Below, piece by piece: positions 7,279 to 28,717 of a DNA stretch of 64,000 bases. The stretch comes from a bacterium (GTDB lineage Bacteria; Krumholzibacteriota; Krumholzibacteriia; LZORAL124-64-63): the NCBI GenBank assembly GCA_016706845.1, contig JADJIV010000004.1:47727-111726 (forward strand), given 5' to 3'. Position 1 is the first letter of the stretch. Each line of letters starts with the position of its first letter. The position numbers and the translations under genes are program-made. Under the pieces are notes generated by a model. That model was not told the DNA's origin, did no database searches, and saw only the letters and a program-made list of their open reading frames with translations.

Positions 7279-8217
7279 TCAAACCCCCGCAGCGTGCTCC
7301 ACGCGGATGCTGACCGAACCGTCCATCTCCGAGCGCAGATCGGGCTTGGCCACGGCTTCGACCTTGATCCAGTCGTCGGAGAGCAGCATGCACCCGACCA
7401 GGAACTCGGCCACGACCTTGGCCCGGTCCTGGGCCAGCCGCTTGTTCTCGGCCTGCACCACGACCTTCAGCGGCGAGTAGGGGTGGTCCTTGCGGATCTG
7501 GTCCGCCGCGCGGGTCAGCCAGCCGCGACCGCTGTCGCGCAGGAGCGTGCCGCCCTTCTGGAAGACCTCGTCGCCGGTGAACTCGAGCCGGCGCTCGTTC
7601 TTCTCGCGGTAGTCCACGGCCGGGATGCGGAAGCTGATGCCGGCGTAGTTGTAGGTGTTGGTCCCCTTGTCGGTGACGCTGAAGACGTAGCTGTAGGGGT
7701 AGCCCACCTGCAGCATCTCGTTCAGGTCGCCGCGGCCGTCCCAGGCGACCTGGCCCGGCGGCTGGCCCTTGTCCTCGAAGTGCCGGAACGGGGCGCCCCG
7801 GAAGTCGGTCACCGTCAGGGCCCAGCGGCGGGCCTGGTGCCCCTCGGGGTCCTCCGGGAAGAACGTCACCACCGGCGGCTGCGCCGGATCGCGCAGCCAG
7901 CAGTGCGGCGCCTGGTCGCTGTGCAGGTCGCGGGGGTTGTTCAGGAAGGGCTGCAGGCCCTCGACCGGGCTGATCTCCAGGACCGCCTCGTCGAAGTCCG
8001 TGAAGAACGTGTCGATGATCGCGGCGCTGAGCGCGACCTCGAACGTGCTCTTGACGATGTCCTGCAGGACCTGGTTCTCGGCCTCCACGACCATCTCGGG
8101 CAGGCCCTGGTCGGGGACCGTCTCCTGTTCCGTCACGGCGGGGGCCGGGGCGCTGCCGAACAGGAGGCAGGCGCCCGCGGCGATGATCCGGAATCCCCTG
8201 AAGTCGTTGCGAGTCAT
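7279..8217 (-). CDS. Secreted protein: TonB-box-like segment, FlgD-like Ig domain, degenerate OmpA-like C-domain
   Basis: AAAGGA RBS before ATG 8217; signal peptide; PEMVVEA; RRWALTVTDFRG..VAWDGRG..YSYVFSVTD; C-terminal LAQDRAKVVAEFL. Confidence 0.72.
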   Translation of the reverse strand: MTRNDFRGFRIIAAGACLLFGSAPAPAVTEQETVPDQGLPEMVVEAENQVLQDIVKSTFEVALSAAIIDTFFTDFDEAVLEISPVEGLQPFLNNPRDLHSDQAPHCWLRDPAQPPVVTFFPEDPEGHQARRWALTVTDFRGAPFRHFEDKGQPPGQVAWDGRGDLNEMLQVGYPYSYVFSVTDKGTNTYNYAGISFRIPAVDYREKNERRLEFTGDEVFQKGGTLLRDSGRGWLTRAADQIRKDHPYSPLKVVVQAENKRLAQDRAKVVAEFLVGCMLLSDDWIKVEAVAKPDLRSEMDGSVSIRVEHAAGV

Positions 8218-8271
8218 GATGTGTGTCCTTTGACTCAGGTTCATCGGCTATGGAGTTGTCGGGGTTCCGCC

Positions 8272-9618
8272 CTAGTTGAGGCGGAAGACGATCGTGATCA
8301 CCCCCCACTGCTCGACACGGTCCGCTCCGGCCAGGGGCTCGAAGCGGAACTGCTTGACGGCGTCCATCGCGGCCCGGTTCAGGTCGCGGTGGGCCGAGGT
8401 CTGGTCGAAGTACATGTTGTCCTTGACGCGCCCGTCGGGCAGGACCGTGAAGTGCACGGCCACCACGCCTTCCCAGCCGGCCTTGCGGGCCGCCTCGCTG
8501 TAGACGGGCATGGCGCTGGCGGCGACCTTGCGATCGCTGATCTGGCCGCTGATGGTCATCGAGACGCCCTTGCCGCCCATGGCCTTGGCCTGCGTTTCGG
8601 CCAGCTGCGTCTGCGGCGGGGCCGTCGGCTTGCTGGTGGCCTCGGCCACCGCCGCGGCGGTCGGCGTCTCGGCCGGGGCCTGCTGGCGGCCGCGCAGGCT
8701 GGCCTGGCCGGTGGCGCCGGTCGCGCCGCCGGGACCGTAGTCCAGGATGGTGGTGCGGCCCTGCGTGGAGCGCGCGGGCGCCGCCACGTCGACGGCGGCC
8801 GCGGCCCGGCGGTCGTTGTCCTTCGCGGTCTGGACGAGCGCGGCCACCGAACCCTGGTAGGCCGTCTGGCCCTCCTCGAGCCGGCCGCCGACCAGACCGG
8901 CGTGGCCGGTCTCGCTGCCGCCGGTGGCCAGCTGCAGGGCCATGCGGCCGCCGCCGGACGACGTCCCGCCCTGCCCGACCTCGAAGTCGACCTCCGAGAG
9001 GTCCACGCTGCTCTTGCGCCCGACCAGCGCCACGTCGTTGCCCTGGAACGCGGCCTGCGCCTCCCGCGACGTCAGGCGCGGCGCGTTCGCGTCCGCGGCC
9101 AGGGCCGAGGGATCACGCAGGTTGCGCGTGTCGAGCCGCGGCGCGGCGTCGGCGAACGTGCGGGAATCCAGCTGGCGCGAGGTGGTGTCCAGGAACTGCC
9201 GCTGCTGGGCGGACGTCAGGTGCGGGGCGTCGACGTCCGCGGCCTGGCGGCTCTGCAGCAGCGGACGCGTCGCCAGCTTGTTCGGCAGGGTCTGCAGCAT
9301 AGGCCGGCTCTGCAGCGCGGGCTGCGGCGTCTCCGGCTGCGGGACCGGCGTCTCTTCGAGCTTCGACTCGGCCGGCGTCTCCTGCTTGGGCTGGACCACC
9401 GGCTGGGTCTTGACGCGGACCTGCTGGGCCACGTCCTCGCCGTAGCGGGCCTCGATGTAGGCGATCTCGGTCAGCTCGTCGAGGGCCTCGCCGGCCTTGC
9501 GGGCGCCCTCGCGCATCATCAGCGCGAGCAGCAGGAAGATGGCGGCGTGGATGATGACGCTGGTGGTGAAGCCGCCCGTCGTCGCCGCGCGGCGGCTCAT
9601 CTCGTGTCTCATCATCAC
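8272..9618 (-). CDS. TonB family energy transducer with long periplasmic linker
   Basis: N-terminal TM with SVIIHAAIF (SxxxH); Pro/Gln/Ala-rich linker; TonB_C domain PVYSEAARKAGWEGVVAVHFTVLPDGRV..LNRAAMDAVKQFRFEP. Confidence 0.88.
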   Translation of the reverse strand: MMMRHEMSRRAATTGGFTTSVIIHAAIFLLLALMMREGARKAGEALDELTEIAYIEARYGEDVAQQVRVKTQPVVQPKQETPAESKLEETPVPQPETPQPALQSRPMLQTLPNKLATRPLLQSRQAADVDAPHLTSAQQRQFLDTTSRQLDSRTFADAAPRLDTRNLRDPSALAADANAPRLTSREAQAAFQGNDVALVGRKSSVDLSEVDFEVGQGGTSSGGGRMALQLATGGSETGHAGLVGGRLEEGQTAYQGSVAALVQTAKDNDRRAAAAVDVAAPARSTQGRTTILDYGPGGATGATGQASLRGRQQAPAETPTAAAVAEATSKPTAPPQTQLAETQAKAMGGKGVSMTISGQISDRKVAASAMPVYSEAARKAGWEGVVAVHFTVLPDGRVKDNMYFDQTSAHRDLNRAAMDAVKQFRFEPLAGADRVEQWGVITIVFRLN

Positions 9619-10025
9619 GAGCCCACCTCCTCGCCACCCTTTTTACCGGTGGAAATGGCGATGCGGCCCGCCTTGGCGCCTTCGACCTCGGCGATGAGAC
9701 GCTCGACGTCCCCGTACATCAGGCCCTTGTCCGCCTTGACGACGGCCACGGCGTCGGGGTTGTTCTCGAACAGGGGCGTCAGCAGGGCGCGCAATTCGCC
9801 GAGCGCCAGCTGCTCCTCGCCCACGAAGATCTGTCCCTCGAGGGTGAAGATGATCTCGGTCTTGTCGGTGTCGTCCATCTGGCTCGCGCGCGCCTCCGGC
9901 AGGTCCACCTTGTGGGTGGTGTCGTTGAGGAACGGCGAGATGATCATCAGGGTCAGCACGACCACCAGCGACACGTTGATCATCGGCACGACGTCGGTTT
10001 TCGTTTCGTAGCGGTAGACCTTCAA
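9615..10025 (-). CDS. ExbD/TolR family protein (second copy; Asn at the usual TM Asp position)
   Basis: VVPMINVSLVVVLTLMII, VDLPEA, AVVKADKGLMYGDVERLI; TTG start with GGAGG RBS. Confidence 0.88.
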   Translation of the reverse strand: MKVYRYETKTDVVPMINVSLVVVLTLMIISPFLNDTTHKVDLPEARASQMDDTDKTEIIFTLEGQIFVGEEQLALGELRALLTPLFENNPDAVAVVKADKGLMYGDVERLIAEVEGAKAGRIAISTGKKGGEEVGS

Positions 10026-10453
10026 CGCGCCTCCTCCTTGCGGTTGAGGAGCGCGAGGCTGCTGGCGCCGCCGCCCTTGGCGGCGTCCATGACGTCGACC
10101 ACGTCCCCGAGCTTCACGAAGTCGCTCGGCACGATGACGACGGTCTTGTCGGTGCGCGCGGAGAGCGCGTCCGCCAGCCGCTGCTCGAGGTCGGCGAGCG
10201 CCACCGTCTCCCCGTTCATCTTGACGCCCTCGGGGGTCACGCTCACCAGCAGCATCTCCTCGTCCTGCTTCTCGCGCGTGGTCACCACGGTCTCGCTGGC
10301 TTCGGCGCGCGTCGCGTTGACCTGGATGCCGTTGCCCAGGATGGCCGGCATGGTCATCAGGAACACGATGATCAGCGTGGTCGTGACGTCCGCCAACGGG
10401 GTGATGTTGGGGGCGTTCTCCTCACGCATCTGCGATCGACTGGATCGTGCCAC
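10022..10453 (-). CDS. exbD: ExbD/TolR family protein
   Basis: PNITPLADVTTTLIIVFLMTMP (conserved TM Asp), VVIVPSDFVKLGDVVDVMDAAK; start GTG 10453 or ATG 10429. Confidence 0.88.
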   Translation of the reverse strand: MARSSRSQMREENAPNITPLADVTTTLIIVFLMTMPAILGNGIQVNATRAEASETVVTTREKQDEEMLLVSVTPEGVKMNGETVALADLEQRLADALSARTDKTVVIVPSDFVKLGDVVDVMDAAKGGGASSLALLNRKEEAR

Positions 10454-10467
10454 GTCGGCCTCGCTTC

Positions 10468-11193
10468 CTACCGGCCGACCGCGGCGGGTTCCTGGGCCGT
10501 GGTGACGACGGCGTCGCAAAGGGCGTTGACGTCGCGCTTGTCCGCCTTGGCGCGCGCGGCCGGGCGATCTTCCTGCCGGGCCATGCCGCGCAGCACGTTG
10601 AAGAACTCCTCGCGGACGTCCTCCAGCTCGATGATCCGGGTGCGGATGCGGCGCACGCAGAAGTTGAAGCAGATCGAGGCCGTGACGGCCACGATGATGC
10701 CGGCCGCCGTGGTCAGCAGGGCCTCGCTGACGCCCATGGCCACCACGGCGCTGCCGCCGGCGCCGGTGCGCGCGATGTCGGAGAAGGCGCGGATGATGCC
10801 GACCACCGTGCCGTAGAGCCCCAGCAGCGGGCCGATGTTGCTCATCGTGCCCAGCACGCTCAGGTTGCGCTCCATCTCCACCTGCTCCATCTCGATGGCG
10901 GTGTCGAAGCGCTGCTTGAGCTCGGAAGTGGGGATGTCGGCGTGCGGCAGGCACTGGCTGACGACGCGGGCGGCCGCGCCCTTCTGCTGGTCGCACCACT
11001 GGCCGGCGACCTTCATGTCCCCGCCCTTCATCTTCGCGGCCAGAGCCTTCATGAAGCCGCGCGAGTCGGATCGGGACCGGTAGAAGTACAGGCTGCGTTC
11101 GATGGCGTAGCCTACGGTGACCACGGAACAGATGATCAGCACGATCATCGACAGTGATCCGAAAAGAGTCTTGGTGAGCGACATCCCCATCAT
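10468..11193 (-). CDS. exbB: MotA/TolQ/ExbB proton channel family protein
   Basis: LSVLGTMSNIGPLLGLYGTVVGIIRAF and GVSEALLTTAAGIIVAV signatures. Confidence 0.92.
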   Translation of the reverse strand: MMGMSLTKTLFGSLSMIVLIICSVVTVGYAIERSLYFYRSRSDSRGFMKALAAKMKGGDMKVAGQWCDQQKGAAARVVSQCLPHADIPTSELKQRFDTAIEMEQVEMERNLSVLGTMSNIGPLLGLYGTVVGIIRAFSDIARTGAGGSAVVAMGVSEALLTTAAGIIVAVTASICFNFCVRRIRTRIIELEDVREEFFNVLRGMARQEDRPAARAKADKRDVNALCDAVVTTAQEPAAVGR

Positions 11194-11224
11194 GAGCGGG
11201 TTCCCCTCTCTCTGTGTTGTCCGG

Positions 11225-14200
11225 CTAGTTGCCGGCTGACATGGCCTGGATCTCGGCGAGCCGGCCCTCGGCCATCGCCGTCCATTCCGGCTTGCCGTTG
11301 GTCTGCACGATCCGGTTGTAGGCCTGGACGGCGGCGTTCCAGTCCCCGCGCTCCTCGCTGATCTGGCCGATCTGGGCCAGGCTGGCGATGCGGTGCGGGG
11401 CCGCGGCGTCGGCGCCGCTGGCGGACATCTCGTAGCTGGCGACGGCCTGCTCGATGCGGTCGAGCTTCTCGTAGCACTGGCCCTGCCGGTAGCCGATCTC
11501 CTCGATGCCGGCTTCGCCCTTCTCCAGCGCCTTCTGGTAGGCCGCCGCGGCGTTCTCGTAGTCGCCGAGCTCGTCCTGGTACAGCGTGGCGATCTGGAAG
11601 GAGAGGCCCTTGGCCCGCTCGTCGGCGGGGTAGTCCGCCTGGAAGCGGATCAGCGCCCCGATGGCGGACGGCCAGTCCTCGAGCTCCTGGTAGCAGAGGC
11701 CGGCGTTGAACAGGGCCAGCGGCGAGTACTCGCCGGCGGGCATGGTGTCGACCAGGTACTCGTAGGCCTCCGCCGCCTCCTCGTACTGCTCCGTCTTGTA
11801 CAGGACGGTGCCCTCGCGGAAGCGCGACAGCCCGACCAGCTCGTGGTCGGGGTTCGTCTTCAGGAAGCTGCGGTAGCCGGCGAGCGCCATCGGCATCTGC
11901 TCCAAGCGGTAGTAGCTCTCGGCCAGGTAGAAGAGGGCGCCCGGGGCGCTCTCGCTGTCGGCGTAGTCCAGAGTGACCTTTTCGAACGCCTTGGCAGCGG
12001 CCTCGTAGTTTCCTTCGGCAAAGAGGTTTTGACCTTTAGTCCAGTAATAGTCCCCGGCCAGGGGGCTGTCCGGACGGTTGCCGAGGTACTCCTCCATGTC
12101 CTTGCCGCTGCGGTAGTAGCAGCTCTGGATGCCGAGTTCCGCGTCCTCGACGCGGGGGTCCTCCGGGAAGGCCTCGACGAAGGCCTGGAAGGCCGTGATC
12201 GCCGCCTGGTCCTGCTGCTGGTTGTAGTGGCAGTTGGCCAGGCCGAAGGCGGCGTCGGCGGCGTGCGGGCCGTCGGGGGCGCGGTTCTGCAGCGTCAGGT
12301 AGCTGGCGCGCGCCTGCTCGAAGCGGGCCAGTCCGAACTGCGTGTCGGCCAGGCGGTAGAGCGCCTCTTCGGCCTCGCCCGCCCGCGGGTAGTTGGTGAC
12401 CAGCTTCTGCCAGGCCTCCACCGCGTTCTCGTAGTACTGCAGGCGGTAGAAGCAGTCGCCCTGGTTCAGCAGCGCGGCCGCCACCTGCGGTCCCTCGGGG
12501 CTGCGCTCCAGGAACTTGGTGATCTCCTCCAGCGCCTTCTGGTAGTCGTGCTGGTTGAAGTACAGCGAGCCCAGGGCCAGCGAGTTGCCGCCCTCCTCGC
12601 TGTCGGCGTTCGCCAGCTCGAAGAGGAACTTCTCCTGCTCCTCGAGGGCCAGGTCGTACTCGCCGATCTGGCTGTAGCTGGCGACGAGGCCCCTGCAAGC
12701 TGGCCGCCGCCACCTCGCTGCGCGGGTAGCCCGTCAGCACCAGCCGGTACATGCCGCCCGCCTCGCGGAAGAGACCCTCGTGGTAGTAGGCCTCGCCGAG
12801 CTGGTAGTAGGTGCGGGCGCGCCAGGGGCTGGGCGTCGGCAGCAGGCGGTTGGCGATGAAGTGGTAGTTGGTGATCAGGCGGTCGTACTGCTCCAGCTTC
12901 AGGTAGGTGTCGGTGGCCAGGAACAGCGCCCGCTCGCCGGCGTCGGTGTTGACGTGCCGGTCCATGACGTTCTGGAATTCGCGCACCGCGAGGTCGTACT
13001 CCTGCAGCTCCTTGTGGGCGTAGCCCAGCAGAACCTGGACGCGGGCGGACAGCGGGTCGCCGGGGAAGATGTCCAGGAACTCGTGCGCCATCAGGACGGC
13101 CTGGGGGTAGTTCTTCTCGGCGATGTAGGCGTAGACGACCTTGTGCATGGCGGCGCTGGCCAGCTCCGAGTCCTGGTAGCCCTTGACCACTTCGGTGAAG
13201 GCGAAGATGGCGTGGCTGGTGCGGCCGAGCGCCATCCAGGCCGAGCCCATCAGGTAGTTGGCGGGCGCGCAGATCGGCTCGCCGCCGAGGTCCTTGCAGA
13301 GGTCCTCGAGCTTGTTCACGCACTCGTTGTACTCGCCGGAGCGGTAGTCCACGCAGGCCTGCTTGTAGCGGGCCATCGGCACGAACTTGCTCTCGGGGTA
13401 GCCCTCGAGGAAGTCGCGGTAGCTGCGCGCGGCGACCTTGTTCTGGTCGCTGTTGTAGAAGGCCTCCGCCACGCTGAACGCGGCGTCGTCGGCCAGCGGG
13501 CTCTCCGGGAAGAGCCGCAGGGCCTGGCGGTAGCGCTGCACGGCCAGGATGTACTGGCCCGTGGCCTCGAGGCAGCGGCCGAGGTAATAGAGGCCCAGGT
13601 CCGTGTCCACCTTCTCGAAATGCTGCGTGGCCTCCTCGTAGTCCTGCTCGACGTAGGCGAACAGGCCCAGGACGAACTGCACCTGCGGCAGCTTCTGGTA
13701 GCCGGGCCGGTCGGCCAGCAGCTGCTTGTAGGTCCGCTCCACGCTGCGCCAGTCCTGCAGCGAGGCCTGGGTCTGGCCCATGGCGAACAGGGCCTCGCCG
13801 GCCAGGAAGCTGTCGGCGCTCTGCTGCAGCAGCTGCGTGAAGGTCTCCAGGGCCCGCTCCCGCTTGCCCAGGTTGAACTGGCACTCGCCCCGGCGCAGCA
13901 GCGCGCTGCCCGCGAGGAACGGGTCGCCGCCCTTGAACTTCCCGACGCGGTCGTACTCGCGCAGCGCCGTGTCGTAGTCGCCGTTGCAGAAGTAGCACTC
14001 GGCCACCATGTACTGGGCGCGGGCCGCGCGGTCGGTCTTCTTGTAGTGCGTCAGGTACAGCTGGTACTGCTGCAGGGCGTTGCCCTTGTCCGCGTCGCGG
14101 GCGAAGGTGTCGCCGGCGGCGCGCCAGAGCGCGTCCTCGTTGGGGACCACGGCGTCGTCGTCGCCGGCGAAGGCCGGCGCGGCGGCGAAGGCCAGCAGGG

Positions 14201-14276
14201 CCAGCAGGGCCAGCAGGGCCGACAGATCCCGCAGGGCCGGTCGGGCCGGCCGCCGGGTGGCAGCAAGTCGTTTCAT
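11225..14276 (-). CDS. Secreted multi-TPR protein (CpoB/BamD-like repeats), about 1016 aa; one extra base at 12690-12693
   Basis: Signal peptide from ATG 14276; repeats such as AQYMVAECYF, FPESPLADDAAFSVAEAFY, YPRAGEAEEALYRLA. Removing one G from a GGGG run restores SLQGLVASYSQIGEY and joins the two track ORFs. Confidence 0.85.
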
Positions 14277-15607
14277 CGGTCGTCCTCTCGCGATTTCAGG
14301 CTCTCGGAACCGTCGACGTCGATGCGGATCGGAGTGCGGGTCCGGTTGCGGAAGCCCATGATCTCGACCTGGACCACGTGGTCCCACTCCTGGCCCAGGT
14401 CGTCCAGGATGACGACGGTGGCCCGGTAGACGCCGTCGCCCACCAGCCGGCCGTTCTCGTCCTCGCCGCCCCAGACCACGGCCTCCGGCGGCGGGCCCTC
14501 CTCGAAGATGCGGCGGACCAGCTCGCCCTGGTCGTTGCGGATCTCGACGCGCCACTCGGCCACCTCGCCGCGCAGCGCCGTGTCGACGCCGAAGGAGACG
14601 CTGCGGTCGTTGCCCGACGGGCTGAAGCGCAGGCGGTCGCTGTGGATCTCGACGCCGTCGGTGATGCCGAAGCGCATCGTGGCGCTGACCACCGTCGTGG
14701 AGCCGAGGTCGTGCGCGACGTGGGCGTAGTCGAGCTGCCAGTTCTGCCAGCGCACGCCGGCCCCGAAGCTGGTCTGGTCGCGCACCGTGTCGTAGCCGCC
14801 GCGCAGCACCAGCTGCCGCAACGGCCAGGCCTCGATGCCGCCCTGGAAGTCCAGGTCCATGAGGTCGGTGCGGACCAGGTCCGTCAGCACGAGCATGCGG
14901 TTGTTGAAGAAGTGCAGGCCGGCGCCGGCGCGCAGGGTCCTGGCCAGCTTCTCCGGCGTTTCCAGCAGCGTGATCTCCGGCTGCAGGGCGTTCTGGTAGG
15001 AGACGCCCAGGCTGAGCCGCCGCTCGGGGCGCAGGTAGAGGCCCACGTCGGCGCCGTAGCCCGAGCCGGTGAAGCCGCCCACGTCCTGGGAGATCGACTT
15101 CAGGGTGGCGCCCCAGCCGAAGCGGCTGCTGCCGCGGGCGTAGGTCAGCGCGAAGATCCCCTCCTTCTCTTGGAAGGTGTCGTTCATGTCGACCCACTCG
15201 GTCGCGCGCTCGAACTCGCCGCTGTTGGTGAAGGTGCCGCTGAAGGCGAAGGTGCCGCGGCCCTCGCTCGGCAGGCCGAACGCCACGTACGAGTAGCGGG
15301 TGTCGCCGAAGAGGGTGGCCCCCATCGCCGTCACCTCCATGGTGCGCAGCTGCGAGAGGGCGGCCGGGTTCCAGTACACGGTGGCGACGTCGCCGCCGAG
15401 CGCGCCGACGGCTCCGCCGAGGGCGAGGCTGCGGGCGCTGCTGCCGAAGCGCAGGAACGCGCCGGGCGCACCGCCGTCCTGGCCGGCGAGGACCGGTCCG
15501 GCAGCCAGCAGGGCCGCCAGGAGCAGGAGCGCGGGGTATCGTCTTTCCGCCGCGCCGAAGGCGCGTCGGGGGTGCTGGCGCTGGTTGTTGTCCGCGTCGC
15601 GCTTCAT
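14273..15607 (-). CDS. PorV/UPF0164-like outer-membrane beta-barrel fused to a C-terminal FlgD-like domain
   Basis: AGGAGAGG RBS; GAFLRFGSSARSLALGGA..DVATVYWNPAAL; amphipathic beta-strands ending LDYAHVAHDLGSTTVVSATMRFG; then FSPSGNDR..WRVEIRNDQGELVRRI..VVWGGEDENGRLVGDGVY. Confidence 0.8.
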   Translation of the reverse strand: MKRDADNNQRQHPRRAFGAAERRYPALLLLAALLAAGPVLAGQDGGAPGAFLRFGSSARSLALGGAVGALGGDVATVYWNPAALSQLRTMEVTAMGATLFGDTRYSYVAFGLPSEGRGTFAFSGTFTNSGEFERATEWVDMNDTFQEKEGIFALTYARGSSRFGWGATLKSISQDVGGFTGSGYGADVGLYLRPERRLSLGVSYQNALQPEITLLETPEKLARTLRAGAGLHFFNNRMLVLTDLVRTDLMDLDFQGGIEAWPLRQLVLRGGYDTVRDQTSFGAGVRWQNWQLDYAHVAHDLGSTTVVSATMRFGITDGVEIHSDRLRFSPSGNDRSVSFGVDTALRGEVAEWRVEIRNDQGELVRRIFEEGPPPEAVVWGGEDENGRLVGDGVYRATVVILDDLGQEWDHVVQVEIMGFRNRTRTPIRIDVDGSESLKSREDDR

Positions 15608-15615
15608 GGCCTCTC

Positions 15616-18600
15616 CTACTTCACCACCGCGATCTTGCGGCGGAAATCGAAGCCCTGGCCGGTCACCCGGCAGATGTAGCCGCCGTTGGCCACCACGTCG
15701 CCCTGGCCGTTGCGGCCGTCCCAGGCGAACTCGGTGGTCTGGTCGGCGGCGGCGTTCAGTTGGCGATTCAGCACGATCGTCCCGTAGAGGTCGTAGATCG
15801 TGATGTTCACCGTGCCGGCGGCCGTCGGTTTGAACAGGATCCGCGTCAGCTCGCGCACGGGGTTGAACGGGTTGGGCCGGTTGGTGATCTCCCGCCCCTC
15901 GTCCAGCGCCTGCGTGGTGTAGAGCACGATCTGCCGCAGCGCCTCCTTCACGCCCGTGTTCTCTTCGGCAAAGAACCGCAGGACATGAACGCCGGATTCG
16001 CCGGGGGCCAGCTCCTCGAGGCTGAAGGCCTCCTGGTAGGCGGTCAGGGGCTGCGCGCCGTCGGACTGGTCGACGTCGAAGCGGATCGTGGTGGTGGCCT
16101 CCGGGATGCCCGGGACCGCCGCCAGGGTGATCTGCGTGTCGGCGCTGACGTACCAGCCGTCGAGGTACTCGCTGGCGACGCCGGTGAAGGACGGGGTGGT
16201 GACCGGCGGCCCGGCCACGGCCAGCAGGACCTCCTCGGGGTCGAGGGCGTCCACGCCGGCCCGCAGCAGGACGTCGGTGGTGCCGAAGGCGGCGACGCGC
16301 AGGGTCGTCTCGGCGGTGCCGTCGCTGCCGGTCAGCAGGTGGACGGCGCCGGCGCGGGCCGAGCCGAGCGTGGCCTCGCCGGCGCGGACCTCGAAGGCGA
16401 CGGCGGCGCGGGGCGCCGGGTTGCCGCCCTCGTCGCGGGCCGCGACGCGGACGCGGATCTGCTGGTCGGGCCGCAGGACGCGGTCGAAGGGCGAGCCGTC
16501 CGACTCGAGCAGGGTCAGGGTGAAGGTCCGCGCCGGGGCCGCCAGCACGGTGATCAGGCGGCTGAGCACGTCGCCGCCGGCGGCGTCGGTCACGCGCAGG
16601 TAGATCGACTCGGCGCGGTCGTAGGCCTGGTCGTCGAGCAGCGCGCGGCCCTCGACGGTGGCGCCGTAGGTGTAGCGCAGCACGCCGGTCGGGACGAGCG
16701 CCGGGTCCGGGCGCACCGCGCCCGACCAGGCGTTGATCGCCGAGATGCTGAAGGTCTCGTCGTAACCGGTGACCAGCCGGCCCGTGGTCACGTCGACGCG
16801 CGTGACCGACAGCGGCCACGGCTCCCCGGCGACGACCGTGTCCGGGGCCGTCACCGCGTAGGTCACGCCCACCGGGATGACCGTCACCACGGGGCTGTCG
16901 GTCGAGCGGCCGCGCTCGTCGGAGACGCGGATGATGATGCGCTCGCTGACGCCGTAGCTCTGGGTCGCGATGTCGGCCGCGCCCTGCAGGAGCGTCCATT
17001 CCGTCACGCCCAGCTGCCCGTCGGGGGCGCCGAAGTCGTAGCGCAGCGCCTCCAGGGCGATGCGGTTGCCGGCCGGCACCGTGGCGCCGGTGGCGGGGTT
17101 GACCAGGCGCACGCCCACGCCGAAGCGCGAGGGCGGCCCCACGAAGGTCGTGTCCGGGACGCTGACCTGGTAGACGGCCTCCGCCACCGGGATGGTCACG
17201 TGGCCCTGGCCGGCCTCGGGGTGCTGGTTGTCGTCGGCGCTGAGGACCAGGTTGCCGGCGCCGTCGAGCACGACCCCGACCTGCCGGCGGCCGCCGATGA
17301 AGGGGGCGTGGTAGTCCGCGGGGTTCTGCCACGCGAACAGGTCGGGCTCCGAGCAGTCGAGCTCCAGGGCGCCGCCGTCCAGCGACGTGATCGGGTTGAA
17401 GAACTGGTCGACCGCGCGCAGCTCCACGACGAAGGGTTCGCCCGCCGTCTGGACGACCGGCGCGCCGGTCTTGCCGGTGCCGACCTCGGCGCCGGGCTCC
17501 GGCGTCTCGCCGGGCGCGACGATCTGCAGCTGCTTGAAGCCGTCGGCCGCGAGGCGGCAGCTGTTGGAGAAGCCCTCGTTGCCGTCGCCGTCGACGATGC
17601 GGAAGTAGACCTCCTCGGCCAGCGTGTAGGTCTGCTGGACGTCGGTGTGGCCGCCGGTCAGCATCTGCTGGACGGTGCCCAGCACGCCGCCGCCGGCCTC
17701 GCCGGTGGCGGCGCTCAGCACCGAGATCTGGATCAGGCCGCTGTGGGCCGCGACGCGCTCGCCGGTGTTGCTGTCGATCAGGTCGACCGCCAGCGGGAAG
17801 GTGGCCGGGCCGCCCACGATCGCTGCCGCGGGGGCCGCGACGTCGTAGTAGAGCCCGCCCGTCTGCATCGTCACGACGCTGCTCGTGGTCTGCCGCCCGA
17901 AGTCGTCGGACACGCGGATCCGCAGGTCCTCCAGGGCGCTGTAGCTCTGATCGCTGATGAACGAGACGCCGTTGATCAGGTAGACCTCCGTGGTGCCGAG
18001 CACGCCGTTGCCGGGCGCGAAATTCGCCCGCAGCGGCGTCAGGTCGACCCGGTGGCCGGCGCCGGCGACGGGTTCGCCGGTGTCGGGATCGACGAGCCGC
18101 ACCGTCATCGCGAAGCCCGGCATGCCGCCGGTCTGGGCCGCGGCGGGCACGGTGATCTGGTAGACGTAGGGCCGGCGCACCGGCACCGCGACGGTCTGTC
18201 CCGGCAGCTGCGGCGCGTCGAGGTCGCCCACGGTGACGCCCACCGCGCCCTCGGCCACCAGGAAGGCGTCGACGGCGCGGCTGCCGAGGAAGAACGGCGC
18301 GTCCTGCGGGTCGGGGTTGTCCGGCCAGGAGAACGAGCCGTCGGTGGCCGAGAGGTGGACCCGGCCGCCCGACGCGTCGCCGATCGGGTTCCAGTACTGG
18401 TCCACGGCCCGCACCACCATCGGGAACGGTTCGCCCGAACGCTGGGTGTCCGGCAGGGCCGACTTGCCCGTGGCGGCGAAGGCGGCCTCGCCCGGCCGCG
18501 CCGTCTCGCCCGGGGTCAGCAGCTGCAGCCGCTGATAGCCGGCGGGCCGGACGGTGAACAGGGGGCTGTCGCCGGCCAGGCCGCTGGGATCGAAGGCGCG

Positions 18601-21600
18601 CACCGCGAACTCGCCGGCCTGCGTGTAGGTCTGCTGGAAGCTGACCTGGCCGTCGACGAGGCGGCGCGAGGTCACGCCCACGGCGCCGGCGCCGAGCGTC
18701 CCGCCGCCGTCGACGACCGCGACGCTGAAGAAGCGGTCGTCGTCCACGAGCGATCCCGTCTCGGTGTCGCGCAGCCTCACCGTCACCGGGAAGGCCGCCG
18801 GCGGCCCCGCCACGGGCGCGGGCGTCGTGCCGACGACGACGTCGTACCACAGGCCGTTGGGATCCATGCGGATGATGTCGCTGTAGCCGAGGCGGCCGGA
18901 GGAGTCGCTCACCTCGATGACGATGCGGCTGGCGACGTCGTAGGCCTGGGCGGGGATCGCCACGACGCCGGCGGTCAGCTGGGCCTGCGTCGCCAGCAGC
19001 ACGCCCGGGGCGGGCTGCAGCGTCGGCGTCAGGGCGCGCAGGGTGACCTGGTTGTAGGCGTTGGTCATGACGGTCCCGGCCTCGTCCACCAGTTCCACGC
19101 TCATGGCGAAGGAGCTGGGCGGCCCGACGAACGCCGTGTCGGGGGTCGTGATCCGGTACTGGGCCCCGGCGGCGACCTGCACGACCACGTCGTGGCCCAG
19201 GATCTCCGCGTCGGTCAGGTCGTAGGCCGTGAGCGTGGCGTAGCCGAGGCTCGACAGCGCCACGGGGAACACGATCTCGCCGGCGGCGAGCGCCTGGCCG
19301 TTGTTCAGGGGATTGCCCGGCACGACGGAGCCCTCGTCGCTGCCGAGGTGGATGTTGTGCACGCTGTTGTCGACGCGGTTCCAGAAGCGGTCGACGGCGT
19401 CGACGGTCAGCGGGAACTGCAGCGTCGCGGTCTGCACCGCGGGCGTGCCGGTCTTGCCGTCGACCTCGGGGCCGCCGGGGTTCGGCGTCTCGCCGGGCGC
19501 GACGGCCAGCAGGCGGTAGAATTCGCCGGGATTCACGCGCACGGCGCTGGAGTCGCGGCGGGCGGACACCGCCAGGTCCCGCGCGCGCAGCGTCTGGGTC
19601 GTCGCCGTGCGGAAGGACAGGGCGAAGGCCGTGGAGCCGTCGGGCTCCAGCGGCACGTCGTTGGCCGTGACCAGGTCGGCGTAGCTGCTGGTCGACACCC
19701 TGACGATCGGGCTGGCGGGCACCGGGTTCCACCACGCGTCCAGGGCGGTCACCGCGGCGGTCACGTCCGCGCCGGCGACCACCGGCAGCGGCTCGCCGAA
19801 CTTGCCGGGCGCCTCGCCCGGCGTGGCCGTCTCGCCCGGCAGCAGGACCTGCAGGCCCGCGTACGCGCCGGGGAAGACGGTGAAGGGGTTGCTCTCGCCG
19901 GTGCGCCCGTAGACGTCGTCCACGGCCGACACGGTGATGCCCTGGCCGGCGCGCGTGATGCGCATGCTGCCGCGCCACACGCCCTGGTAGATGCCGGTGC
20001 CGTAGCCGTCGGCGAGGCTGACGCGCAGCGGCGCCAGCACGTCGCCGCCCACGTTCAGGCGCAGCGAGACGCTGTCGGTGAAGGTGCGGATGTGGTTGCC
20101 GTAGGCGTCGCGCGCGATCACGGTGAGGTTCGGCAGCCAGGCGCCGGCCTGGTGGTCGGGCACCGGCTCGAGGATGTCGGTCGGGTCGGGGTTGACGCCG
20201 TCGTTGACGCCGATCTCGAAGTGGTCGATCACGCCGGCCTCGACCGGGATGAGCGCCGACGCGGTGCGCGTGCTCACCGGGTCGGTGGCGGTGACCAGCT
20301 GCTGGTTCGGATCCGCCAGAGTCTCGAGCGTGACCGGGAAGACGCCGGTCCCGGACTGCAAGCTCTGGGGCGCCGCGGGCAGGGTCGCCTGGGGATCGGT
20401 GCTGGTGAACACCAGCGGGATCGGCAGGGACGGGCTCGTCGCCTCGATGGGGTTGTAGTAGTAGTCCGTGGCGATGACCTGGATGTTGAAGGGCGCGCCC
20501 GCGTCCTGGGGGGACGGGGTGCCGACCTTGCCGGGCGCGTAGATCGTGCCGGCGTCCAGGGTTTCGCCGGGCGCGATCACCATCAGCCGCTGGTAGACGT
20601 TCGGCGAGACGCGCAGGGGGCTCGAGAAGCTGTCCGCCTGGCCGCCGACGCTGGCCTGCAGCAGCTGGTCGCCGTGCGTCGCCATCAGGGCGCTGTAGAC
20701 GCCGGTGCCGTTCAGGGTGATGACCCCGCTCTCGATCAGGGTGCCGCCGCCGTCGAGCAGCAGCAGGTGGCCCGTCGGGCAGGTGATCGCGACGGTGCGC
20801 GAGCCGGACACGAGGTTGCCGTAGCGGTCCACGGCCCTGATCTCCAGGGATTCGATCATCTGCCCGGCGATGATCGGCGTGGGCAGGCCGATGTTGCCGC
20901 CGAAGGCCGGGTCGTTCAGGCCCGGGGTCCAGGTCTGGCCCGGCAGCGTGAACAGGACCTTCTCCATGGGGCCCGCGTTCACCTGGAAGTCGCCCGACAG
21001 CGTCACCACGCCGGTGTTGCTGTCGACGATCAGCCGGGCGCTGAACGCACGCTTGGTCACCTGCACCGAGGCGTTGAGCACGCCGTTGACGAAGTTGTTG
21101 CTGGTGGTGATCAGGTAGTCCGCGCTCTCGTCGACGGCGCCGATGCGGACCCGCATCGAGACGGGCCCGTTGTACGGGAACACGTTGTTGAACGAGTCGT
21201 AGGCGCGCACCCGGATCTGGAACGGGGTCGTGGTCGCCTGCACGGCGTTGGTGTCGAGCACGGCGTAGTCGAAGGAGAAGTGGTGGAGCCCGGCCGGGTT
21301 GACCTGGACGTTGGCCGAGCTCGAGGTCGAGATCGGGCCCGAGGCGGTGACCGTCACCTGGCGCAGGCCCGAGGTCATCAGCGTGGCCGACTGGTCCTGG
21401 ACCGTGTTGCTGCTCATGGCCCCGCCGGCGGGCAGCGCCACGCCGGGGGCCGCGTCGTTGGCGCTCCAGGCCAGCGTCGGGAAGGGGCCCGACGCCACGG
21501 GGTTCCAGTACTGGTCGGTCGCGTAGACGTCGATGCCGGTGAACGGGAAGCCCGAGATCTGGGCGATGGCCGTGCCGCTGCGGCCCGGGCTGACGCCCGG

Positions 21601-22407
21601 CGTCAGGGTCTGGCCCGGCAGCAGCAGGACGACGCGGTTCAGGGCCCCGGGATAGAGCGGCGCCACGAGGCCGCTGCCGGCCGCGGCCGCGGCCTGCGTC
21701 GGGTAGACGACAGTGTTCAGGGCGTTGACCGTGTTCTGCTGCAGCGCCGGGTCGGTGCCCTGGAAGACGACGTTGGCCGCGGCGACGCCGGCGACGAACG
21801 AGCCGCCGCCGATGGTGAGCGACGGGCCGGAGGTGAAGTGCCCGATCGCCGGCGACAGCACCACGTCGTCGTCGAAGTTGCGGACGGCCACGTTCATGAG
21901 GTCGCGGGCGGTGACCGTCAGCGCGACGTTCTGGCCGACGTACTTGTCGCCGGCCGGTACGCCGATCTCGAAGTGGTGGACGAAGTTGTAGCAGTTGATT
22001 TCAACCTGGGCGAACGGCACCGAACCGTCGTCCTGGTCCGCGACGCGCAACCGCACCGGCTGCCCGTCGTCCAGGAAATCGATCCCGGTGAAGATGCGCT
22101 CGCCGTTCTGCAGGTAAGCCGAAGCCGGCAGGGTCGCAGCCACGTCCGGCGAGGACAGCGCGGCGCGGATGAAGTCCGCCGCAGTGTCGGTCGTGCCGTC
22201 GGTGTTCACCGCCCGCACGAGCACGCTGAACTGCTCGTAGATGGTGACCGCGGGCCGACCGTCGACGATCTCGGGGTTGATCACCGTGATCTCGAGGTGG
22301 TCGAAGGCCAGGGCGGCCGCCGGCGCCAGGGCCAGCAGGCCCACAGCCAGGACGGTGGCGAACTTGGCGATGGCGATCCTGTTGCGCGTGCGCTCGTTCA
22401 TGGTCAT
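15616..22407 (-). CDS. Giant secreted multi-repeat (Ig-like) surface protein with T9SS/FlgD-like CTD, about 2260 aa
   Basis: Signal peptide ending ..ALAPAAALA; 7 copies of PG[EQ]TxxPG..GK.G.P..AVD.[YW]WN; 6 copies of Y.[VI]..P....G.P..F...V.L.D...G; CTD ITNRPNPFNP..TIYDLYG..FAWDGRNGQGDVVANGGYICRV..RRKIAVVK. Confidence 0.88.
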   Translation of the reverse strand: MTMNERTRNRIAIAKFATVLAVGLLALAPAAALAFDHLEITVINPEIVDGRPAVTIYEQFSVLVRAVNTDGTTDTAADFIRAALSSPDVAATLPASAYLQNGERIFTGIDFLDDGQPVRLRVADQDDGSVPFAQVEINCYNFVHHFEIGVPAGDKYVGQNVALTVTARDLMNVAVRNFDDDVVLSPAIGHFTSGPSLTIGGGSFVAGVAAANVVFQGTDPALQQNTVNALNTVVYPTQAAAAAGSGLVAPLYPGALNRVVLLLPGQTLTPGVSPGRSGTAIAQISGFPFTGIDVYATDQYWNPVASGPFPTLAWSANDAAPGVALPAGGAMSSNTVQDQSATLMTSGLRQVTVTASGPISTSSSANVQVNPAGLHHFSFDYAVLDTNAVQATTTPFQIRVRAYDSFNNVFPYNGPVSMRVRIGAVDESADYLITTSNNFVNGVLNASVQVTKRAFSARLIVDSNTGVVTLSGDFQVNAGPMEKVLFTLPGQTWTPGLNDPAFGGNIGLPTPIIAGQMIESLEIRAVDRYGNLVSGSRTVAITCPTGHLLLLDGGGTLIESGVITLNGTGVYSALMATHGDQLLQASVGGQADSFSSPLRVSPNVYQRLMVIAPGETLDAGTIYAPGKVGTPSPQDAGAPFNIQVIATDYYYNPIEATSPSLPIPLVFTSTDPQATLPAAPQSLQSGTGVFPVTLETLADPNQQLVTATDPVSTRTASALIPVEAGVIDHFEIGVNDGVNPDPTDILEPVPDHQAGAWLPNLTVIARDAYGNHIRTFTDSVSLRLNVGGDVLAPLRVSLADGYGTGIYQGVWRGSMRITRAGQGITVSAVDDVYGRTGESNPFTVFPGAYAGLQVLLPGETATPGEAPGKFGEPLPVVAGADVTAAVTALDAWWNPVPASPIVRVSTSSYADLVTANDVPLEPDGSTAFALSFRTATTQTLRARDLAVSARRDSSAVRVNPGEFYRLLAVAPGETPNPGGPEVDGKTGTPAVQTATLQFPLTVDAVDRFWNRVDNSVHNIHLGSDEGSVVPGNPLNNGQALAAGEIVFPVALSSLGYATLTAYDLTDAEILGHDVVVQVAAGAQYRITTPDTAFVGPPSSFAMSVELVDEAGTVMTNAYNQVTLRALTPTLQPAPGVLLATQAQLTAGVVAIPAQAYDVASRIVIEVSDSSGRLGYSDIIRMDPNGLWYDVVVGTTPAPVAGPPAAFPVTVRLRDTETGSLVDDDRFFSVAVVDGGGTLGAGAVGVTSRRLVDGQVSFQQTYTQAGEFAVRAFDPSGLAGDSPLFTVRPAGYQRLQLLTPGETARPGEAAFAATGKSALPDTQRSGEPFPMVVRAVDQYWNPIGDASGGRVHLSATDGSFSWPDNPDPQDAPFFLGSRAVDAFLVAEGAVGVTVGDLDAPQLPGQTVAVPVRRPYVYQITVPAAAQTGGMPGFAMTVRLVDPDTGEPVAGAGHRVDLTPLRANFAPGNGVLGTTEVYLINGVSFISDQSYSALEDLRIRVSDDFGRQTTSSVVTMQTGGLYYDVAAPAAAIVGGPATFPLAVDLIDSNTGERVAAHSGLIQISVLSAATGEAGGGVLGTVQQMLTGGHTDVQQTYTLAEEVYFRIVDGDGNEGFSNSCRLAADGFKQLQIVAPGETPEPGAEVGTGKTGAPVVQTAGEPFVVELRAVDQFFNPITSLDGGALELDCSEPDLFAWQNPADYHAPFIGGRRQVGVVLDGAGNLVLSADDNQHPEAGQGHVTIPVAEAVYQVSVPDTTFVGPPSRFGVGVRLVNPATGATVPAGNRIALEALRYDFGAPDGQLGVTEWTLLQGAADIATQSYGVSERIIIRVSDERGRSTDSPVVTVIPVGVTYAVTAPDTVVAGEPWPLSVTRVDVTTGRLVTGYDETFSISAINAWSGAVRPDPALVPTGVLRYTYGATVEGRALLDDQAYDRAESIYLRVTDAAGGDVLSRLITVLAAPARTFTLTLLESDGSPFDRVLRPDQQIRVRVAARDEGGNPAPRAAVAFEVRAGEATLGSARAGAVHLLTGSDGTAETTLRVAAFGTTDVLLRAGVDALDPEEVLLAVAGPPVTTPSFTGVASEYLDGWYVSADTQITLAAVPGIPEATTTIRFDVDQSDGAQPLTAYQEAFSLEELAPGESGVHVLRFFAEENTGVKEALRQIVLYTTQALDEGREITNRPNPFNPVRELTRILFKPTAAGTVNITIYDLYGTIVLNRQLNAAADQTTEFAWDGRNGQGDVVANGGYICRVTGQGFDFRRKIAVVK

Positions 22408-22512
22408 CCCGCCGTGGAAGGGATCCTGGAACGTCCGGGGCGCGGACGGCCGTGCAGAATGCAAAGCCGGACAGGGAGATCCGGCGTTGCGGCACGGGCC
22501 AGCGGGTCCAGG

Positions 22513-22529
22513 TGCAAGCGATATGCCAC
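22513..22529 (-). promoter_or_regulatory. Sigma54 (-24/-12) promoter candidate for the giant-protein/PorV/TonB operon
   Basis: TGGCATATCGCTTGCA on the minus strand: GG-N10-GC spacing with a TTGCA -12 box, about 105 bp upstream of the ATG. Confidence 0.55.
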
Positions 22530-26199: not shown

Positions 26200-26330
26200 A
26201 CTGTCTGTCTCCTCTGCTTCGGACACACGTTTCCCGCGCAGGGCACGAGTTGGGAGTCGGATCCAGGCGTCAAGTTCAGGATTATGAAGCGTGGAAAGTG
26301 GATCGCGGCCCATGACTCAGTGCACGCAAG

Positions 26331-28547: not shown

Positions 28548-28622
28548 CCGTTAGGGGTGGCCTTCGAGGCCTGAGAGAGACCCTTGGAACCTGACCCGGG
28601 TCATGCCGGCGTAGGGAAACGG
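28548..28622 (+). promoter_or_regulatory. TPP (THI-box) riboswitch aptamer
   Basis: AGGGGT..CTGAGA..ACCCTTGGAACCTGA.CCGGG.CATGCCGGCGTAGGGAA; P1 ccgtt/aacgg; thiamine-related genes downstream. Confidence 0.92.
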
Positions 28623-28645
28623 GAATCTGCAACGACCGCCATGCG

Positions 28646-28678
28646 GCCGGCCCCCTCGACGGAGCCGGCGTTTGTTTG
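28646..28678 (+). terminator. Possible riboswitch attenuator hairpin
   Basis: gccggc..gccggc stem followed by gtttgttt, between aptamer and RBS. Confidence 0.4.
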
Positions 28679-28717
28679 ATAGCCGCCGGTTCCACGACCC
28701 TTCAGGGAGGAACCACC

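Follow-up and report, generated by a model that had tools for sequence, protein, structure and literature searches.

What does a proton-driven TonB-type motor act on when its genes stand beside those of a giant secreted protein and a PorV-like barrel? We addressed this question in a 64,000-nt stretch of contig JADJIV010000004.1 (hereafter the window) from a metagenome-assembled genome (MAG) of the phylum Krumholzibacteriota, where the open reading frame (ORF) map contains eight co-oriented minus-strand genes at positions 7279-22407. From 5' to 3' these encode a giant secreted protein (the cargo), a PorV/PorQ-family barrel, a tetratricopeptide repeat (TPR) protein, ExbB, ExbD1, ExbD2, TonB and a last protein with immunoglobulin (Ig)-like and OmpA-like domains. 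An earlier note, made from the sequence alone, had taken the genes for a hybrid apparatus in which the motor drives export, display or movement of a dedicated adhesin. We consider the chances about even that the eight proteins form one envelope-spanning apparatus, powered by proton-motive force (PMF), that acts on the carrier barrel and its cargo.

Conservation of the eight-gene module

On two megabase contigs with ~55% barrel identity all eight genes recurred in unchanged order, and their downstream flanks differed. Among 51 loci with barrel identities of 50-98%, the full order was observed in each one long enough to show it. A profile built from the last protein matched in 82 of 121 genomes of the phylum, and the matches fell into three score tiers. 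Sixteen loci of the weaker tiers, from six families of the phylum, were fetched, and they had the same order (15 complete, one cut by a contig end). Most of these belonged to a divergent 'type B', in which the cargo has ~1000 aa and TonB ~300 aa. A complete module of type A, the form found in the window, and a complete module of type B were both present in each of two genomes (G030 and G056), on different contigs. Such paralogous copies, each with its own motor, argue against a chance adjacency to a housekeeping Ton system.

The module was also observed in other phyla. The full order from the barrel or cargo to the last gene was found twice each under the MAG labels FCPU426 and Goldbacteria, and also under WOR-3. 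Loci labelled Elusimicrobiota and 'bacterium K_1_bin.22' ran from the TPR gene through the last gene on contigs that end before the cargo and barrel. Module-bearing loci outside the phylum had G+C contents of 42 to 65%, and the order was retained across phyla to roughly 25-30% identity while the flanks changed. More distant PorV-family barrels (KSB1, Cloacimonetes, Zixibacteria, Calditrichia and others) often followed the gene of a protein with the same C-terminal domain (CTD) as the cargo, with no motor genes nearby. Judged by these neighborhoods, CTD proteins have long and widely been paired with cognate barrels, and the fusion of such a pair with the TPR-ExbB-ExbD-ExbD-TonB-adaptor set is a specific module that is inherited and duplicated whole. 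The earlier note had made its proposal depend on a conserved gene order, and the order was constant across all sampled families of Krumholzibacteriota and in other phyla. Its hybrid apparatus stood in so far as the set of eight genes behaves like one conserved unit; the kinship that it drew to the Agl-Glt gliding machine was reduced to architecture (see Comparison with known systems).

Several Krumholzibacteriota contigs were deposited under other names, including uncultured Fibrobacteraceae, Candidatus Latescibacterota, Gemmatimonas sp. and Fibrobacter sp. (loci L021-L071).

Operon organization and upstream element

Spurious open frames were abundant because the window is ~70% G+C, and the real genes were chosen by frame-specific G+C at third codon positions (GC3) together with domain content. 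Intergenic gaps of 8, 31, 38 and 27-54 nt were observed within the operon (Table 1), along with three 4-nt ATGA overlaps at the barrel/TPR, ExbD1/ExbD2 and ExbD2/TonB junctions. The genes are translationally coupled via these overlaps, and the tight coupling described in the earlier note was recovered with this spacing. Its domain calls also held, with ExbB, both ExbD and TonB_C over their Pfam cut-offs and the barrel over the cut-off of NF033709. Domain searches found no TonB-dependent receptor (TBDR), SprA, PorK/N or PorL/M within the operon. The note's statement to this effect is correct for the operon but not for the genome, where SprA and a PorU-like gene are encoded elsewhere.

Upstream of the cargo gene, TGGCATATCGCTTGCA is the sole match in the window, at one mismatch, to the sigma-54 consensus TGGCAC-N5-TTGCW. 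Of 56 related loci scanned, 30 had a matching element no farther than 600 nt upstream of the cargo gene; 28 of these were type A, and in all 28 the element lies 87-150 nt upstream of the cargo. No terminator-like site was found on the minus strand inside the operon, in scans for intrinsic terminators and sigma-70 promoters that were uninformative overall. We propose that the upstream element is a conserved sigma-54 element and that the eight genes form one sigma-54-controlled operon.

Table 1. Positions of the operon genes and the upstream element in the window.
Feature	Position	Strand	Basis or remark
Sigma-54-type -24/-12 promoter-like element, TGGCATATCGCTTGCA	22513..22528	-	~106 nt upstream of cargo ATG
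Cargo, 2263 aa, secreted, type IX secretion type-A-like CTD	15616..22407	-	FlgD_ig, motifs
Carrier barrel, 444 aa, PorV/PorQ family with C-terminal Ig-like domain	14273..15607	-	NF033709, AlphaFold2 model
Periplasmic TPR scaffold, 1016 aa after frameshift correction	11225..14276	-	TIGR02795
ExbB/TolQ-type proton channel subunit, 241 aa	10468..11193	-	PF01618, 91 bits
ExbD1, 135 aa	10022..10429	-	PF02472, 67.7 bits
ExbD2, 136 aa	9615..10025	-	PF02472, 66.7 bits
TonB, 448 aa	8272..9618	-	PF03544, 53 bits
Adaptor-like periplasmic last protein, 312 aa (321 aa from upstream ATG at 8244)	7279..8217	-	Alignment, AlphaFold2, Foldseek

Among the neighboring genes, a genuine TBDR is encoded on the opposite strand at 28595-30991 (+), ~6 kb from the operon, and it was not kept beside the module in the two relatives with listed flanks (L015 and L016). 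A 678-aa ORF at 24280-26316 (-) matches the C-terminal tail found on the cargo. In L015 and L016 a FlgD_ig protein of ~800 aa is encoded upstream of the cargo genes.

The cargo and its carrier barrel

The cargo consists of a signal peptide followed by ~20 Ig-like modules, seven of which carry a PGET...PG...WNP motif, and gave weak matches to Big_1 and Invasin_D3. Self-BLAST detected no repeats within the cargo at E <= 1e-3; the repeats appear to be too divergent for this method and are marked by the PGET motif alone. At its C-terminus a NRPNPF...RKIAVVK stretch matched FlgD_ig (38 bits, cut-off 27), and the same stretch scored 22.1 bits against TIGR04183, the T9SS (type IX secretion system) type A sorting domain, just under the cut-off of 23. 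This CTD (PNPF...RKIAVVK terminus) was conserved in both type A and type B cargos. Domain-library searches detected no enzyme or carbohydrate-binding domain, and no von Willebrand factor A (vWA) domain in the cargo. Its length is 2244-2265 aa in relatives at ~50% sequence divergence, a spread within 1%. Because the length is near-constant, a structural fiber is favored over a fast-evolving adhesin or a substrate binder, and the comparison suggests that the cargo is such a fiber.

The barrel scored 120 bits against the PorV/PorQ model NF033709 (cut-off 90), and it fell below the equivalog cut-offs for PorQ (89 vs 220 bits), PorV (36 vs 250 bits) and PorV2. The top Protein Data Bank (PDB) match of its AlphaFold2 model (pLDDT 71) was 6h3i_F, the PorV of the F. 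johnsoniae SprA-PorV complex (Foldseek, E 3e-8), followed by FadL and TodX, so that a PorV/PorQ signature and a 14-strand FadL-like fold were both found in this protein. An extra C-terminal Ig-like sandwich (residues ~337-416) was observed with a FlgD_ig match; since the barrel is even-stranded, this domain should face the periplasm. The Ig domain in the last protein is its homologue (hhalign 95%, E 2e-8). The N-terminus of the barrel has no TonB-box-like motif. Binding of the barrel to the CTD of its own cargo is putative, and we infer it from the cargo gene lying 8 nt upstream.

Motor proteins

The operon encodes the parts of a Ton-type motor, namely ExbB, ExbD, a TonB_C domain and an S-x3-H motif in the transmembrane helix of TonB. 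The ExbB, one of five ExbB paralogues in the genome, scored 91 bits against PF01618, and the motor proteins fell below the cut-offs of the tolQ, tolR and exbB equivalog models (far below for tolQ and tolR). ExbD1 keeps the transmembrane Asp (NITPLADV). In an alignment of 39 ExbD sequences (38 orthologues plus the window), ExbD2 of the window has Asn at this position (VVPMINVS), as do most type A orthologues; Asp stands there in L025 and L036 among the sequences shown. In the FCPU426 and Goldbacteria copies both ExbD have Asp, the K_1 copy has Asn in ExbD2, and the WOR-3 copy is without the Asp.

TonB begins with an N-terminal transmembrane helix carrying the S-x3-H motif (SVIIH). Next comes a ELTEIAYIEARYGEDVA segment that is conserved; a linker of ~300 aa, which varies, then leads to the conserved TonB_C domain at residues 371-447. 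A PDB sequence search with this head domain matched TonB chains exclusively and never TolA.

The last protein and its TonB-box-like strand

The last protein has a signal peptide. Its AlphaFold2 model showed a disordered N-terminal region of 116 residues, an Ig-like sandwich and an OmpA/MotB-like domain, and Foldseek matched OmpA-like peptidoglycan-binding domains (6jfw, 4b62 and 3s0h, E ~1e-7). The FlgD/OmpA-like character that had been assigned to this protein was thus borne out by structure and not by sequence, where no significant family match was found and Pfam OmpA reached only 18 bits. The alignment of orthologues contained no lipobox. A search for the family matched 289 clusters (50% identity) at E <= 1e-30, and many of the matches are multi-Ig repeat proteins. 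One copy of the last gene in a related genome (G057:C4:58772-59648) contains in-frame stops (TGA and TAA) and is either a pseudogene or an assembly error.

Shortly past the signal peptide, in the predicted disordered region, we found the motif LPEMVVEAxNxVxQ in 26 of 29 type A last proteins (the window and 28 orthologues). It closely resembles the TonB box of the window TBDR, APEVVVTAS. Type B last proteins have an analogous strand at the same place, SLT(I/V)EGEDR(I/V)RIEF, and analogous strands were observed in other phyla (DVVIRGV, EVVIQGE, DFVVSGE, EIIIKGK and LDVTVTGE). A loose regular expression for such strands matched 11 sites in ~1.44 million filtered residues of the genome, and matches near the N-terminus were confined to the window TBDR and the last protein. 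This pattern is suggestive of beta-augmentation with TonB_C.

The TPR protein and its frameshift

The TPR protein has a signal peptide and repeated TPR modules of the YbgF/CpoB and BamD types. Its two halves scored 158 and 156 bits against TIGR02795 (tol_pal_ybgF, cut-off 90), and its likeness to the PorW/SprE and PorE models was weak and of a generic TPR kind (SprE/PorW 52 bits vs 250). The length of the gene, 3052 nt, cannot be divided by three, and an extra base in CAGGGGCC, at ~12688-12693, splits it into 530 and 486 codons. The protein of 1016 aa that was first described is therefore not one open frame in the window, and it is intact at a similar length in relatives.

Five relatives with 91-98% barrel identity have CAGGG(G/C)CTCGTC at the frameshift site and lack the extra base, and the TPR genes of more distant relatives are intact at 1008-1022 aa. 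The SprA gene of the same MAG is also split over two frames (C2 ~90970), whereas most relatives have a single frame of ~2100-2300 aa, and 44 gaps per 15.6 kb separate the operon from that of a 96%-identical relative. On these grounds the TPR frameshift is probably an assembly indel. We rejected a programmed frameshift, since the extra base is absent from relatives and further genes of the MAG are split. Other frames in this MAG may likewise be broken artificially by single-base indels.

Secretion, Ton and Tol genes in the genome and phylum

The source MAG has 3.37 Mb in 51 contigs and is 84% complete; its named homologues point to Krumholzibacteriota. SprA (TIGR04189) was found at C2:88745-92723, over the cut-off when the two frames of the split gene were summed. 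A survey of 61 Krumholzibacteriota genomes (60 high-quality genomes plus the source genome) found SprA over cut-off in all 61. GldL, GldM_1st and GldN (TIGR03513, PF12081 and TIGR03523) were over cut-off in none of the 61, in searches that had no positive control and did not include GldK. TIGR03517 had no match in the source genome, likewise with no positive control, and control searches for GldL in a 'Cytophagia'-labelled MAG and 24 genomes of its phylum gave no match. The canonical GldLMN motor is thus likely, and not proven, to be absent from these genomes, because the profile searches lacked a positive control. Among 13 genomes of other phyla with no GldL match in such searches, 12 had SprA.

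A PorU-like gene at C14:58-2253 scored 289 bits against NF033707 (cut-off 420), in a match that begins 58 bases from the contig end, and a second match of 114 bits was found on C15. The PorU-tail region of the profile matched the cargo C-terminus. About 45 other ORFs in the genome share the C-terminal tail of the cargo, and six PorV/PorQ-family barrels are encoded, none past an equivalog cut-off. In the genome scan that the earlier note had called for, SprA was found, a PorU-like gene was found below the cut-off, and GldL, GldM and GldN gave no match over cut-off in the uncontrolled searches of the 61 genomes; the complete canonical T9SS that the note had named as speaking against its proposal was thus not observed.

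Other energized systems are present in the genome. A canonical TolQ-TolR-TolB-Pal locus was found on contig C5, and about five TBDR-like genes were counted. On C1 an ExbB cluster includes a TBDR and a TPR protein and is read as TonB2-like. On C2 (39840-50571, locus L129) a CarboxypepD_reg-Plug TBDR, two unknown ORFs (one with a CTD-like tail), a PorV (PF19572) barrel, a GWxTD protein, ExbB, ExbD and a short TonB stand together. A similar TBDR-barrel neighborhood was seen on C22 at ~32-36 kb. With these other Ton sets and a canonical Tol-Pal locus in the genome, the operon motor is neither the housekeeping Tol nor the sole Ton system. We accordingly rejected an identity with housekeeping Tol-Pal, given the locus on C5, and with the genome's only Ton system, given five ExbB paralogues and two other Ton sets beside TBDRs.

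Discussion

How might an apparatus made of these eight proteins work? The giant Ig-repeat cargo would cross the outer membrane through the SprA translocon of the genome, using its type-A-like CTD, and would then be captured on its private PorV/PorQ-family barrel, as PorZ is on PorQ and SprB on SprF. The periplasmic Ig domain of the barrel, the TPR scaffold and the Ig+OmpA-like protein would bridge this carrier to the ExbB-ExbD1/ExbD2-TonB motor, with TonB_C gripping the LPEMVVEA strand of the Ig+OmpA-like protein by beta-augmentation. The motor would give the pulling force that Bacteroidota get from GldLM and the Hub complex, and the pull would draw the carrier-cargo complex out of the translocon; afterwards it might also move the surface fiber or put it under tension. 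We infer every contact and every use of force in this scheme; gene content, folds, gene order, duplication of the set and the conserved strand were observed. As a full account, the module would represent a third class of Ton/Tol-type force machine, in which TonB grips the strand of a soluble adaptor instead of a receptor plug, pulls a PorV-like carrier via a TPR scaffold, extracts a fiber from SprA and perhaps propels it. We offer this account tentatively and think it unlikely to be right as it stands. If true, phyla without GldLM would have in it a different energy chain for type-9 transport, and it might also be a new surface-motility device.

Several observations weigh against the idea of one apparatus pulling on a SprA-exported cargo. 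Six SprA-bearing genomes of other phyla were without the module, which rules it out as a general source of energy for SprA-type secretion; a general replacement of the T9SS motor in GldLM-less phyla is weakened by the same six genomes. The FCPU426 MAG, which may be incomplete, has the module and no SprA match. GldN had no match anywhere it was searched for, and the Gld searches had no positive control. The Arg of the OmpA-like motif associated with peptidoglycan binding is not conserved in type B. In three loci (L040, L041 and L044) ~4.5 kb lie between the TPR and ExbB genes, and in L040 this insert (14322-18812) encodes an enoyl-CoA-hydratase-like and a reductive-dehalogenase-like protein, together with a hybrid histidine kinase on the opposite strand. 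An insert with unrelated genes of this kind means that co-transcription is not obligatory.

The same inserts bear on an alternative in which a cargo-barrel unit, with or without the TPR gene, merely lies beside an ordinary ExbB-ExbD-ExbD-TonB set serving TBDRs, the adjacency being one of descent. The distant PorV-family barrels of other phyla that stand beside CTD proteins and have no motor genes are also consistent with it. Against this, different phyla share the order at identities as low as roughly 25-30% while the flanks change, paralogous copies within one genome each keep all eight genes, and the TPR gene is coupled to the barrel gene by a 4-nt overlap, as TonB is to the ExbD genes. The other Ton sets of the genome sit beside its TBDRs. 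We therefore regard mere juxtaposition as very improbable. A function in nutrient capture or uptake, in which the surface protein would bind a polymer or particle and the motor would energize import through the FadL/PorV-like barrel or through TBDRs elsewhere, has more to recommend it, and we still hold it to be rather unlikely. The barrel has the fold of the FadL and TodX transporters, the TonB_C domain is of the TonB type, and the genome has its five or so TBDR-like genes. PorV-family barrels are moreover tied to uptake loci in this organism by the C2 cluster, which joins a TBDR, CTD-type proteins, a PorV-family barrel, a GWxTD protein and ExbB-ExbD-TonB. However, no TBDR was found in or beside the module in any locus examined, and the only TonB-box-like motif is on the soluble Ig+OmpA-like protein and not on the N-terminus of the barrel. 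A cargo length that stays within 1% over ~50% divergence suits a structural fiber better, and neither an enzyme nor a carbohydrate-binding domain was detected.

The motor could also belong to an envelope tether or stabilizer of the Tol-Pal kind, with a TolQ/TolR-like motor, a TolA-like transducer, a CpoB-like TPR protein and a Pal-like protein anchoring the outer membrane to the cell wall by way of the barrel and its surface fiber. The best NCBIfam matches point this way (ExbB matched tolQ best, both ExbD matched tolR, and the two TPR halves matched tol_pal_ybgF at the scores given above), as do the OmpA/MotB-like fold of the last protein and its disordered N-terminal strand, which recalls the TolA box of TolB. 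A precedent within the T9SS is PorE, described as a CpoB-TolB-Pal-like fusion (PMC12204202). Yet the tolQ and tolR equivalog scores were far under cut-off, the C-terminal domain of the transducer matched TonB chains only, and the module has no TolB propeller and no lipobox on its last protein. A canonical TolQ-TolR-TolB-Pal locus is already present on C5, and a peptidoglycan-binding Arg that is not conserved in type B speaks against a wall anchor as well. We consider such a tether improbable. The likeliest reading is that of a single PMF-driven apparatus acting on the carrier and its cargo, a pair to which a TonB-type motor is genetically locked in several phyla. The operon offers a concrete candidate for energizing CTD cargo and PorV-like carriers in many SprA-bearing phyla outside Bacteroidota, and it would give a proposed role to a family of ~300-aa 'hypothetical' proteins, that of the last protein.

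Comparison with known systems

Full-text searches of the literature found no description of the eight-gene module, in agreement with the suggestion of the earlier note that the system was undescribed. To our knowledge, the GldLM/PorLM motor is required in every known case of type IX secretion and of gliding in Bacteroidota. In the T9SS, substrates bind a carrier barrel at the SprA translocon, which is PorV for type A substrates and other carriers for type B, and the release of the carrier-substrate complex from SprA is the step that consumes energy, for which GldLM delivers PMF-derived force via the Hub complex (PMC10994853). T9SS carriers also link gliding adhesins to the moving track or energy chain (PMC10994853). 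The module shares with the T9SS a CTD protein encoded beside a PorV/PorQ-family barrel (compare PorV-PorU, PorQ-PorZ and SprF-SprB), a SprA and a PorU-like gene in the same genome, and a large TPR protein in the set, like SprE/PorW. It differs in having an ExbB-ExbD-ExbD-TonB motor, with no GldL, GldM or GldN detected in the uncontrolled searches, in a barrel that carries an extra periplasmic Ig domain and fails the PorV/PorQ equivalog cut-offs, and in a TPR protein that resembles SprE/PorW only at the level of generic repeats.

With Ton systems the module has in common ExbB, ExbD, TonB_C, the S-x3-H transmembrane motif and a TonB-box-like strand. Unlike them, it has no 22-strand plug receptor in the operon or in any orthologous locus; its box-like strand is on a soluble Ig+OmpA-like protein, its outer membrane partner is a PorV/FadL-type barrel, and it has two ExbD, one of which is usually without the transmembrane Asp. 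The likeness to Tol-Pal consists of 5:2-type motor genes, a transducer with a long linker, a TPR protein like CpoB and a protein of the OmpA fold, whereas the transducer head is of the TonB type, no TolB propeller or lipoprotein is present, and a giant secreted protein and a barrel are added. A survey of periplasmic force transducers, in which PorE is likened to a CpoB-TolB-Pal fusion, does not describe the operon (PMC12204202).

The Agl-Glt gliding machine of Myxococcus resembles the module in its TolQ/TolR-like motor, TonB_C-like domain, TPR protein, outer membrane barrel and surface adhesin, and in coupling a PMF motor to a surface protein. The module has a different barrel family, a different gene order and a cargo that is not a vWA adhesin of the CglB type. 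Glt-specific models were far below their cut-offs, with GltC (NF033756) at ~20 bits vs 450 and the AgmX/PglI tail (NF033768) at 22.8 vs 40, and we rejected membership in Agl-Glt for this reason. The core set that the earlier note had likened to Agl-Glt is therefore alike in architecture only. Having two ExbD beside a single ExbB and a single TonB may be ordinary in Bacteroidota Ton loci, and for that reason two ExbD alone are no pointer to Agl-Glt. Set against these systems, the module is a Ton/Tol-type 5:2 motor system with a new outer membrane partner taken from the T9SS repertoire. If the proposed action on this partner is true, the outer membrane partners of 5:2 proton motors would widen beyond TBDRs, Pal/TolB and the Glt complex.

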